A stretch of DNA of 42,305 nucleotides from a virus. The position numbers and the translations under genes were made by a program. The DNA lies in UHGV virus genome UHGV-0118819; one strand, 5' to 3'. The notes beneath the pieces are model-generated. The model made no database searches and was not told the origin of the DNA. It saw only the letters and a list, made by a program, of their open reading frames with translations. Below, piece after piece: positions 19,719 through 21,139 of the stretch; within the stretch, counting starts at the first letter, position 1, and each line of letters starts with the position of its first letter.

Positions 19719-20786
19719 ATGTCACAGAACTGGATGAGACATTTCGAGCTGCAGCTTGTGGACGGGAACGGTCAGGGAATTGAGCTAAGTGATTTCAAAG
19801 TCACCTTTACGATCGACTGGTTCAACATCAGCAGCGCGTCCCGGGTAGGGACTATCAAAATTTATAACCTTTCGGCAGATACTGTGAACCGAATTACCGG
19901 GCAGGAGTTTTCGAAAGTGCGGCTGATTGCCGGTTACGACGGTATCGCGCCGGAGGTGGCGGCAAGCGACGTCGGGACCGTGCGCGAAGTCGACGCGGCA
20001 GATGTGGGCCAGAGTGATGGCCGCAACTACGGGCTGATTTTCAGCGGAGAAATTCGCTACTCGGTCACAGGAAAAGACAGCCCTATTGATTCCTATGTCC
20101 TGATTCAGGCAGCAGATACGGATCTGGCATTTGCCACCAGTATAACCTCGCAGACGCTGGCGGCCGGTTACACGGTCGCAGATGTGAACCGTGCGCTGAT
20201 GAAAGACTTTGAGGCCAAAGGCGCGACCGAAGGACTGACGCCTGAAATGCCTGCTACCGTATTCCCTCGAGGGCGGGTGCTGTTCGGCATGACACGGCAT
20301 CTTATGGATAACGTGGCCGGACAATGTGGCGCAACATGGCAATTTGTGGACGGTCAGCGCCAGATGGTGGCGAATAACGAGTATGTTCACGACGCGATTG
20401 TGCTCAACAGCGCCACCGGGCTTATCGGCATGCCGCAGCAGACTATCGGCAACGGTGTAAACGTCCGCGCTCTTATTAATCCGAACATCCGGGTTAACGG
20501 GCTTATTCAGCTGGATCAGGCTTCCGTGTACCGCACCGCGCTGTCGAACAATGATATTGCGATGGCTGGTGGGCAGATCACCGACCAGAACACGGACGGA
20601 AATATCACGCTCAGCGGCACCACAGCACAACCTGCCAGCATCGCAACGGATGGCGTTTATATTGTGCGCGGGATTATGTACACTGGCGATACAAGGGGCC
20701 AGGCGTGGTACATGGATATGATGTGCGAAGCGCGTGGCGCGGCGGATCTTCGTTCTGCGTCGTCTTTACAGCGTGAGGTAGGATAG
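19719..20786 (+). CDS. baseplate hub-like protein (gpD/Mu gp44-like)
   Basis: 355-aa ORF upstream of V/W/J/I-like baseplate genes. Confidence 0.6.
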   Translation: MSQNWMRHFELQLVDGNGQGIELSDFKVTFTIDWFNISSASRVGTIKIYNLSADTVNRITGQEFSKVRLIAGYDGIAPEVAASDVGTVREVDAADVGQSDGRNYGLIFSGEIRYSVTGKDSPIDSYVLIQAADTDLAFATSITSQTLAAGYTVADVNRALMKDFEAKGATEGLTPEMPATVFPRGRVLFGMTRHLMDNVAGQCGATWQFVDGQRQMVANNEYVHDAIVLNSATGLIGMPQQTIGNGVNVRALINPNIRVNGLIQLDQASVYRTALSNNDIAMAGGQITDQNTDGNITLSGTTAQPASIATDGVYIVRGIMYTGDTRGQAWYMDMMCEARGAADLRSASSLQREVG

Positions 20787-21139
20787 TGAAAAAGTGGATT
20801 GTTATCGGACTCTGTTTCCTTCCGGGGTTAGCATTTGCTGCGAATCCTGGCGGTATCACGCTTCAGTGTGGTGGCTACAAATTAGAGTTGATTCCTGATT
20901 CATTGTTCAGGATTAATGGTGAGACAGTTACCTCCCAGAAAATCAAAACGCTCGGCAACGGTAATGGAATGAAGGCGGATATGGGTCTTATGCCAGCCAA
21001 AGACGGTAACAATTACGCTTTCGAGTTCATTCGTCGCCCTGGTACCGAAACGCGTTTCCTGAACGTCCAGCTTCTGCAGAACAGCATGGATGCACCGAAA
21101 ATCATCGGCTCCTTCCCGTGTAAAAAGGTTGATGGTTAA
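20786..21139 (+). CDS. small secreted protein with signal peptide (moron candidate)
   Basis: GTG start overlapping hub stop (TAGTG); MKKWIVIGLCFLPGLAFA signal peptide; Cys-containing mature part. Confidence 0.6.
   Translation: MKKWIVIGLCFLPGLAFAANPGGITLQCGGYKLELIPDSLFRINGETVTSQKIKTLGNGNGMKADMGLMPAKDGNNYAFEFIRRPGTETRFLNVQLLQNSMDAPKIIGSFPCKKVDG

Follow-up and report, generated by a model that had tools for sequence, protein, structure and literature searches.

The window analyzed here, a 42,305-nucleotide stretch of the virus genome UHGV-0118819, carries a contractile-tail module on the plus strand, within which the gene for a 117-amino-acid exported protein of the phrog_3443 family (20786-21139, plus strand) directly follows the baseplate hub gene. 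According to our analysis, the position directly after the hub gene is a conserved slot for exported proteins, and the family of the small protein is its usual occupant. We infer with high confidence, for both its location and its absence from virions, that the small protein is an exported accessory protein and not a virion component. This view is based on the conserved signal peptide, the invariant cysteines, the lipoprotein relatives, the replacement by unrelated proteins and the lack of a counterpart in the tail of the phage Pam3.

The GTG start codon of the small gene shares its G with the TAG stop codon of the 355-amino-acid hub gene (...GAGGTAGGATAGTGAAAAAG; TAGTG), a 1-nucleotide overlap, and a Shine-Dalgarno-like sequence (GAGGTAGGA, 20775-20783, plus strand) lies within the 3' end of the hub gene, with GAGG 7 nucleotides before the GTG. 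Translation of the small gene is coupled to that of the hub gene. In the homologues listed as examples, its start codon is no more than about 12 nucleotides away from the stop codon of the hub gene and is preceded by purine-rich runs at the equivalent place; the start codons of 104 distinct family sequences, pooled from all loci, are ATG (75), GTG (21) and TTG (8). A hub fusion produced by programmed frameshifting was rejected, as the frame of the small gene is closed 9 nucleotides upstream in the window (in some loci it is open far upstream). The identical open reading frame (ORF) was called by RefSeq/PGAP in Escherichia coli AR_452, which is 99.4% identical over the region, as a hypothetical protein (WP_112021755.1). 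The GC content of the small gene is 0.472 (0.525 at third codon positions), as compared with 0.554 (0.632) in the hub gene and 0.42-0.47 (0.37-0.42) in the cassette that lies downstream.

A rule-based check of the N-terminus predicted a signal peptide of 18 residues (MKKWIVIGLCFLPGLAFA, 20786-20839, plus strand), with cleavage by signal peptidase I after AFA and ANPGG as the beginning of the mature protein. The features of all three regions of a Sec signal are present, namely the charged n-region (MKK, with its two lysines), the hydrophobic core (WIVIGLCFLPGL) and the A-F-A residues at positions -3 to -1, followed by A. The first 20 or so residues vary in sequence across the family alignments and retain their hydrophobic character: a charged n-region and a hydrophobic core were found in 104 of the 104 distinct sequences, and a site with small residues at -3 and -1 ahead of the conserved cysteine in 103. 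The lipobox pattern [LVI][ASTVI][GAS]C is absent from the window protein, whose lone cysteine in the signal region (IGLC) has leucine at -1 and is not conserved. The first-pass annotation had described an ORF of 117 amino acids with a signal peptide and a GTG start overlapping the hub stop; this description was borne out, and it gains further support from the Shine-Dalgarno-like sequence, the phrog_3443 membership and the purifying selection reported below.

The conservation of the slot was followed in 45 hub-containing loci, one genome per bacterial species, with hub identities of 44-98%, of which 43 were informative. An intact family member lies directly after the hub gene in 37 of these 43. 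Two others (L011 and L020) retain no more than a C-terminal remnant of a family member, behind the gene for a different exported protein; one (L021) has in the slot a 379-amino-acid lipoprotein with an N-terminal domain homologous to that of the lipoprotein P0143; and three (L037, L043 and L047) have a hub-to-spike gap of 86-103 nucleotides that contains no gene. The IMG/VR set comprised 78 informative contigs, whose hubs share 83-98% identity with that of the window; 68 of them carry the small-gene family and the other 10 encode one of two alternative exported proteins in the slot. In several loci, nothing but the small gene separates the hub gene from the spike gene. A short ORF immediately behind the hub gene, within the same gene order, recurred in each of the related phage records that were examined: Salmonella SEN34 (Brunovirus), Yersinia YP3, Klebsiella Mulock, several induced Klebsiella prophages and vB_EcoM-689R2. 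An ORF of 110-117 amino acids also follows the hub in E. coli E2348/69, IAI1, S163-2 and UTAK-4, with differing cassettes behind it.

One of the two alternative occupants is a secreted protein of about 153-180 amino acids (L069:5556-6098, L097, L098, L119, L011:4493-4957), which in most cases is followed by a 15-17-amino-acid remnant of the 3' end of the small gene. The other is a lipoprotein of about 241-244 amino acids (...FLTSCSWDPNG...; L085:3948-4673, L107:5568-6293, L108, L111, L120, L122) encoded by the sole gene between hub and spike. No annotation was found for either of them. The unrelated secreted protein or the 241-amino-acid lipoprotein replaces the small gene beside hubs that are 95-98% identical to that of the window, and unrelated exported proteins occupy the slot in at least 12 loci. 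The remnants behind the secreted replacement suggest that the conserved 3' part of the small gene is where recombination junctions fall. Lipoproteins are found in the slot of some relatives, namely the type of about 241 amino acids, P0143 and the proteins of L020 and L021. P0143 (L052:5001-5879), encoded in exactly the slot after the hub, is a fusion of a lipoprotein with the barrel domain of the family; both it and P0164 have a lipobox and an extra N-terminal domain of about 190 residues, of unknown function, fused to the barrel. In L021 (7068-8207), an N-terminal domain of the P0143 type is joined to a different C-terminal domain, an arrangement that indicates modular domain swapping among the lipoproteins of the slot.

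The small gene is also carried by six loci from Acerihabitans, Rahnella, Serratia and Pantoea (L033-L036, L038 and L040) that lack the genes for the tape measure, the wedge and the fibres and have only hub, small gene and spike, in some cases preceded by the genes for Dit or the plug; L034 (6001-8217) has hub, small gene and spike only. The small gene is intact in these loci, including the signal peptide. They are flanked by a large ORF ending like the primase of L034 and then by a conserved ORF of about 200 amino acids. In L034 these flanks were confirmed as a primase (Zn-ribbon/Toprim/DUF927) and a Terminase_2 small subunit, with a single-stranded DNA-binding protein (SSB) and Abi_2 nearby. 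An integrase-like ORF is present in L040 and, upstream, in L038 (tail genes at 5389-8201), where it was confirmed by Pfam. The six loci look like satellites of the phage-inducible chromosomal island (PICI) type that have a baseplate core of their own; no description of satellites bearing tail-tip genes was found in the literature searched.

The nearest structurally solved relative of the window's tail is that of Pam3. Its genes are arranged in the order tube initiator gp17, plug gp18, hub gp19, spike gp20, sheath initiator gp21, wedge gp22-23 and fibre gp24, and the baseplate resolved by cryo-electron microscopy is complete with six components, the hub gene gp19 being directly followed by the spike gene gp20 (PMC9942802). 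The solved Pam3 baseplate thus has no counterpart of the small protein and no place for an extra protein beside the hub, which supports, for this relative, the first-pass claim that canonical baseplate operons have no gene here. The dispensability of the small gene in relatives fits with a baseplate that is complete without an additional protein. The same annotation had named a stoichiometric virion component conserved in all related tail modules as the finding that would speak against an accessory factor; of these two properties, conservation is nearly complete (37/43 and 68/78), but the evidence contradicts a stoichiometric place in the virion. The small protein is not a universally retained structural protein of the Pam3 type, since the slot is empty in L037, L043 and L047.

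Residues 9-116 of the window protein matched positions 6-114 of the 115-position profile of phrog_3443 (E-value 2.4e-45, 153.9 bits). The protein is a direct member of this family, which has no annotated function, so that membership names the protein without explaining it. Beyond phrog_3443, no family match was obtained in Pfam, NCBIfam, PADLOC or the PDB sequence profiles; the sole other PHROG listed, phrog_13864, was non-significant (E-value 0.095) and is of unknown function. Nothing on the family was found in the literature, which was searched by protein accessions, by phrog_3443 and for virion proteomics of related phages. A search among 5.8 billion proteins retrieved 366 homologues, and every named source among the 120 matches listed was an Enterobacterales species or prophage. 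The family is narrow, as a profile search of 1.84 billion cluster representatives yielded 46 clusters only. Three long repeat proteins from that search (P0121, P0145 and P0162) were set aside, as they seem, judged by eye from the sequences, to be repeat or compositional matches.

The small gene is genuine and under purifying selection. Its pooled ratio of nonsynonymous to synonymous substitution rates (dN/dS) is 0.25 overall and falls from 0.52 in the signal peptide through 0.39 in residues 21-43 to 0.12 in residues 44-117. This ratio, together with the conservation in streamlined satellites, led us to reject the possibility of a chance ORF or a hitch-hiking pseudogene. In the family alignments, neither Cys28 nor Cys112 ever varies, and conservation is strong over the C-terminal two thirds. 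The variable N-terminal mature part with high column entropy (amino acids 21-43; 20846-20914, plus strand) corresponds to the first beta-hairpin and its loop and includes Cys28 (20867-20869), while the conserved beta-barrel core with its invariant columns (amino acids 44-117; 20915-21136, plus strand) includes Cys112 (21119-21121).

The AlphaFold2 model, computed with a 40-sequence alignment, had a mean predicted local distance difference test score (pLDDT) of 83, with values above 90 across most of the mature protein, including the core, and below 50 at residues 1-3 and 10-19. It is all-beta, with seven long strands in an up-and-down barrel, and the mature protein is basic and has a mass of about 10.5 kDa. 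The two invariant cysteines are placed on the first and last strands of the model, and for this reason a Cys28-Cys112 disulfide probably closes or clamps the barrel. Foldseek searches against PDB and BFVD gave nothing significant (no match with an E-value below 0.1). At the level of the model, the fold class is that of a generic secreted beta-barrel and identifies no family.

The small gene is also unusually diverse. Protein clustering at 85% identity across 80 viral contigs gave one cluster each for the hub and the spike N-terminal domain and two for the sheath initiator, and 10 for the small protein (of 17, 15, 11, 8, 7, 6, 1, 1, 1 and 1 sequences), which is the most-clustered protein tested, followed by baseplate J (7) and the N-terminal part of the tape measure (6). 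The alleles of the small protein are independent of every other tail protein tested, with adjusted mutual information (AMI) values not exceeding 0.13 (0.13 for the tape-measure lysin, 0.03 for the spike C-terminus). Co-evolution with the spike C-terminus was tried and rejected (rho 0.09, AMI 0.03). At deep divergence, the distance matrices of the small protein follow those of the hub (rho 0.64) and of Dit and the spike N-terminal domain (0.48) over those of the wedge proteins (0.14-0.24).

The distance matrices of L001-L051 contain two groups of proteins: the N-terminal part of the tape measure, the plug, the sheath initiator, baseplate J and the DUF2612 protein, with mutual rho values of 0.55-0.85, and Dit, the hub, the small protein and the spike N-terminal domain; the spike C-terminal domain is uncorrelated with everything. 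These comparisons suggest that the tail module has been passed on in two blocks.

In a Serratia aquatilis prophage (L031:7092-11980), seven tandem paralogues of the small protein are encoded between hub and spike, in an array interrupted by a 402-amino-acid ORF on the minus strand that is transposase-like (insertion sequence-like) in appearance. Five of the copies are 79-91% identical, one belongs to the other subfamily and one is frameshifted. The five differ most visibly in the signal peptide and the first hairpin.

The first-pass annotation had suggested that the small protein could be a host-interaction or exclusion factor. Of this suggestion, the exported nature stands, a place in the virion is very unlikely, and a role in host interaction or exclusion is reasonable. 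Five traits would be expected of a gene engaged in conflict at the cell envelope: export, an N-terminal hairpin that diversifies, alleles that assort independently, replacement by non-homologous proteins and tandem arrays. In the scenario that we favour, the gene would be expressed as part of the late operon and translated by coupling to the baseplate hub gene; the product would be exported by Sec with removal of its 18-residue signal peptide and would fold in the periplasm into a basic beta-barrel of about 10.5 kDa, of the eight-stranded type and clamped by a disulfide. This protein, which predominates in the slot both among the temperate Enterobacterales myophages of the Pam3 type and among PICI-like satellites, would intercept a component that the tails of incoming phages present in the periplasm or require there, with the barrel core as a scaffold and the variable N-terminal hairpin as the element of specificity. 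The peptidoglycan hydrolase domain that ends the tape measure may be considered a candidate target. That the small protein is an exclusion or anti-injection factor is a possibility to which we give somewhat less than an even chance, and the scenario as a whole, including a periplasmic function of this kind, is put forward just as tentatively. A more far-reaching version appears doubtful to us: the family would be a new periplasmic anti-injection family in a polymorphic "exclusion slot" tied to the hub-spike pair, with the first hairpin picking the tails to be blocked, the other slot proteins acting as analogues and the satellites carrying the same weapon.

Three groups of known proteins are relevant to this scenario. 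Spackle (gp61.3) of T4, which is small, periplasmic and disulfide-bonded, binds the gp5 tail lysozyme of incoming tails (PMC7677548). It resembles the window protein in being a small phage protein with a cleaved periplasmic signal and one disulfide (predicted in the latter), and its target is a cell-puncturing device, between the genes of whose homologous counterpart, the hub and the spike, the window gene is located. However, Spackle is a 75-amino-acid alpha-helical bundle (PMC7677548), encoded by an early gene of a virulent phage, whereas the window protein is a predicted beta-barrel from the late tail operon of temperate phages, and the two have no sequence relationship; a shared function is a conjecture from analogy. 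Gp15 of HK97 is an exclusion moron in the tail operon that causes a tail-dependent block of the entry of incoming DNA (PMC3594210). Like the window gene, it is an envelope-targeted accessory gene inserted among tail genes, but its product is a YebO-family protein of the inner membrane, and the gene is flanked by a promoter and a terminator of its own and is active in the prophage, whereas the window gene has no detectable promoter or terminator of its own, is coupled to the hub, has a product predicted to be soluble and periplasmic, and occupies a slot conserved throughout the lineage. The Cor lipoproteins of T1, phi80 and N15 are exported, are encoded beside tail or receptor-binding genes and protect the lysogen or infected cell and the progeny at the envelope. 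Similarly, Llp of T5 is an exported protein, encoded beside tail or receptor-binding genes, that protects the infected cell and the progeny at the envelope (PMC9586334). The presence of lipoprotein variants in the same slot as the window gene is reminiscent of these proteins; nevertheless, both Llp and Cor reside in the outer membrane as lipoproteins and block FhuA, whereas the window protein has no lipobox, and no relationship in sequence or fold was found.

Several observations weigh against an exclusion function. None of the defence models of PADLOC-DB matched the small protein (0 families at an E-value of at most 0.01), nor did any family of Pfam or NCBIfam. A consensus scan, which is no proof of absence, revealed no promoter-like site for the small gene from position 20300 to its start, that is, over 480 nucleotides upstream, and no terminator before position 22297. 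Expression in the lysogen, which classical prophage exclusion requires, is therefore doubtful; with no detectable promoter of its own, the small gene may be expressed only late in lytic growth, which would speak more for a function in the lysing cell than for the protection of the lysogen. In addition, the alleles track neither the spike C-terminus, nor the lysin type, nor any other tail protein, and the family coexists with tape-measure lysins of both the RNNNPGN type and the SLT type. The lack of allelic co-variation and the presence of two unrelated lysin types do not support a strictly cognate inhibitor of the phage's own tail tip or lysin. The three loci without a small gene (L037, L043 and L047) also lack a lysin domain, an association in favour of a cognate lysin inhibitor, but it is broken by L031. 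The idea of a cognate inhibitor of the tape-measure lysin was consequently kept as a weak lead only, given the seven copies in L031 without a recognisable lysin, the two lysin types and the absence of allele tracking.

Other explanations of the small protein deserve consideration. It could be a factor of lysogenic conversion that protects the bacterium instead of the phage, either by inhibiting lysozymes or peptidoglycan hydrolases in the manner of PliC/MliC or Brucella PhiA, or by serving as an orphan immunity protein against effectors of the type VI secretion system (T6SS) or bacteriocins. Other small barrels appeared in the structure comparison, namely the Bacteroides T6SS immunity protein BtaiB (6.5), Brucella PhiA (6.0) and the PliC/MliC lysozyme inhibitors (4.9-5.8); PliC/MliC, PhiA and the avidin-like eight-stranded barrels have 3-14% sequence identity to the window protein, and the likeness is one of fold class only. 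The small protein matches neither the MliC/PliC profile (PF09864) nor the conserved motifs of that family, and it has neither a sequence-profile match nor a strong structural match to the avidin/streptavidin family. We regard a host-benefit role as improbable. A somewhat smaller probability is assigned to a late periplasmic helper of release or lysis, which would hide a receptor or envelope component and thereby keep progeny from being lost on debris, as in the second role of T5 Llp or of Cor-type proteins, or tune the timing of lysis like the periplasmic RI protein of T4. The location inside the late tail operon, the coupling to the hub and the lack of an own promoter agree with such a helper, as do the lipoproteins in the slot of some relatives, which are expected of receptor-masking proteins and have a precedent in T5 Llp (PMC9586334). 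The window protein itself, however, is soluble, has no lipobox and would be lost at lysis; receptor binding is carried out by tail fibres encoded several kilobases downstream, and the alleles of the small gene do not track the other, non-fibre tail genes that were compared.

The virion-related alternative is that the small protein is a baseplate assembly factor or a minor virion protein associated with hub and spike, its hydrophobic N-terminus being an uncleaved membrane anchor or internal segment. The nearly universal synteny, with a start abutting the hub stop, the retention of the gene together with hub and spike in streamlined PICI-like satellites and the deep distance matrix, which tracks the hub (rho 0.64) and Dit and the spike N-terminal domain (0.48) better than the wedge, are all compatible with this. 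The opposite is indicated by the Sec signal with an AxA-like site in 103 of 104 sequences, the two invariant cysteines and the relatives fused to lipoproteins, and equally by the unrelated exported replacements beside hubs 95-98% identical to that of the window, the absence of the gene from L037, L043 and L047, the ten alleles on one hub type and the lack of an equivalent in the solved Pam3 baseplate. Taken with this evidence, an assembly or virion role appears very improbable.

By its Pfam matches to Pam3_gp18 and Dit_like, together with the gene order, the tail module of the window is of the Pam3 "minimal myophage" type. All its genes are on the plus strand: the tape measure (16818-18827), the Dit-like tube initiator (18827-19414), the Pam3_gp18-type plug (19414-19716) and the baseplate hub (19719-20786; phrog_196, E-value 1.9e-88, with PF22759 E217_GP41 below the cut-off) precede the small gene, and the baseplate spike (22341-23093; PF18352, E-value 1.4e-44, and an Apex motif), which forms the right border of the variable region, the sheath-initiator-like protein (23093-23446), baseplate J (23446-24645), the DUF2612 wedge protein (24642-25322) and a protein with tail-fibre repeats (PF03406; 25304-26350) follow it. 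The C-terminus of the tape measure (18240-18824) is a peptidoglycan hydrolase domain that matched PDB 7q47 "Endolysin" (E-value 9e-14) and phrog_7182 "tail injection transglycosylase." In the homologous parts of L001-L051, this domain is swapped among relatives between two lysin types, an SLT lytic transglycosylase and a type with the RNNNPGN motif that is related to the 7q47 endolysin and to 9vvp Gp29; no recognisable lysin was present in L037, L043, L047 and L031. The lysin type is moderately associated with the type of the spike C-terminal domain (AMI 0.48).

The small gene is followed on the plus strand by an AT-rich spacer of 162 nucleotides (21140-21301, GC 0.36), in which a promoter-like site (TTGAGT-16-AATAAT, 21165-21192) marks the left boundary of a variable cassette (21302-22298). 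The cassette consists of a 192-amino-acid ORF (phrog_35514, otherwise with a weak EAD5 match) and a YafO-family toxin (PF13957, E-value 4e-17), and it is closed, just before the spike gene, by a strong intrinsic-terminator-like hairpin with a T-run (22297-22318, plus strand). With these signals it looks like an autonomous unit. In the first-pass annotation, the small gene and the cassette had been joined into a single accessory island of about 1.5 kb; our results do not agree with this, because the YafO cassette and the alleles of the small gene assort independently, and the two are better described as separate loci, the cassette with its own promoter-like site and terminator. The YafO cassette was found paired with at least five allele classes of the small gene, and the allele class of the window occurs with six different hub-to-spike spacing lengths. 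Across relatives, the hub-to-spike distance ranges from about 400 nucleotides, with the small gene only, to more than 5 kb, and the content includes YafO pairs, pairs with a second ORF that is HEPN-like by eye, DUF4282, DUF2335 and many secreted proteins.

The YafO cassette of the window is also present in L016, L017, L062, L080, L087, L090 and L099. The usual YafN antitoxin is only about half as large as the 192-amino-acid partner of YafO and, by these searches, unrelated to this partner. Another two-gene cassette recurs between the slot gene and the spike in L005, L007, L011, L020, L024, L098 and L119, with an ORF of about 243-273 amino acids and one of about 126-142 amino acids that contains the motif AISRAYY(G/A/S)(M/L)(Y/L)H and is HEPN-like by eye. 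This pair may be a defence or toxin pair in the same hotspot as the YafO cassette.

Overall, part of this picture was already known: the family has been catalogued as phrog_3443 and is uncharacterised, and exported accessory proteins encoded in tail operons are a known kind. Distinct here are the fixed, hub-coupled slot in the baseplate core, the extreme allelic diversity, the interchange with unrelated exported proteins and the carriage by satellites. The common view of tail operons is that they are purely structural. In the tails compared, a fixed position in the baseplate core almost always encodes an exported protein, and this small gene is the most polymorphic gene of the tail module. If the small protein is indeed an exclusion factor, the few envelope-level defences of phage against phage would gain a new fold and also a new genetic architecture, that of a slot gene coupled in translation to its neighbour and lacking its own promoter, and it would help to explain plating incompatibilities among very common prophages of E. 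coli, Klebsiella and Salmonella. In that case, the slot after the hub gene would also serve as a simple marker for mining more such proteins. The presence of the small-gene family in the type strains E2348/69 and IAI1 makes the idea cheap to test.

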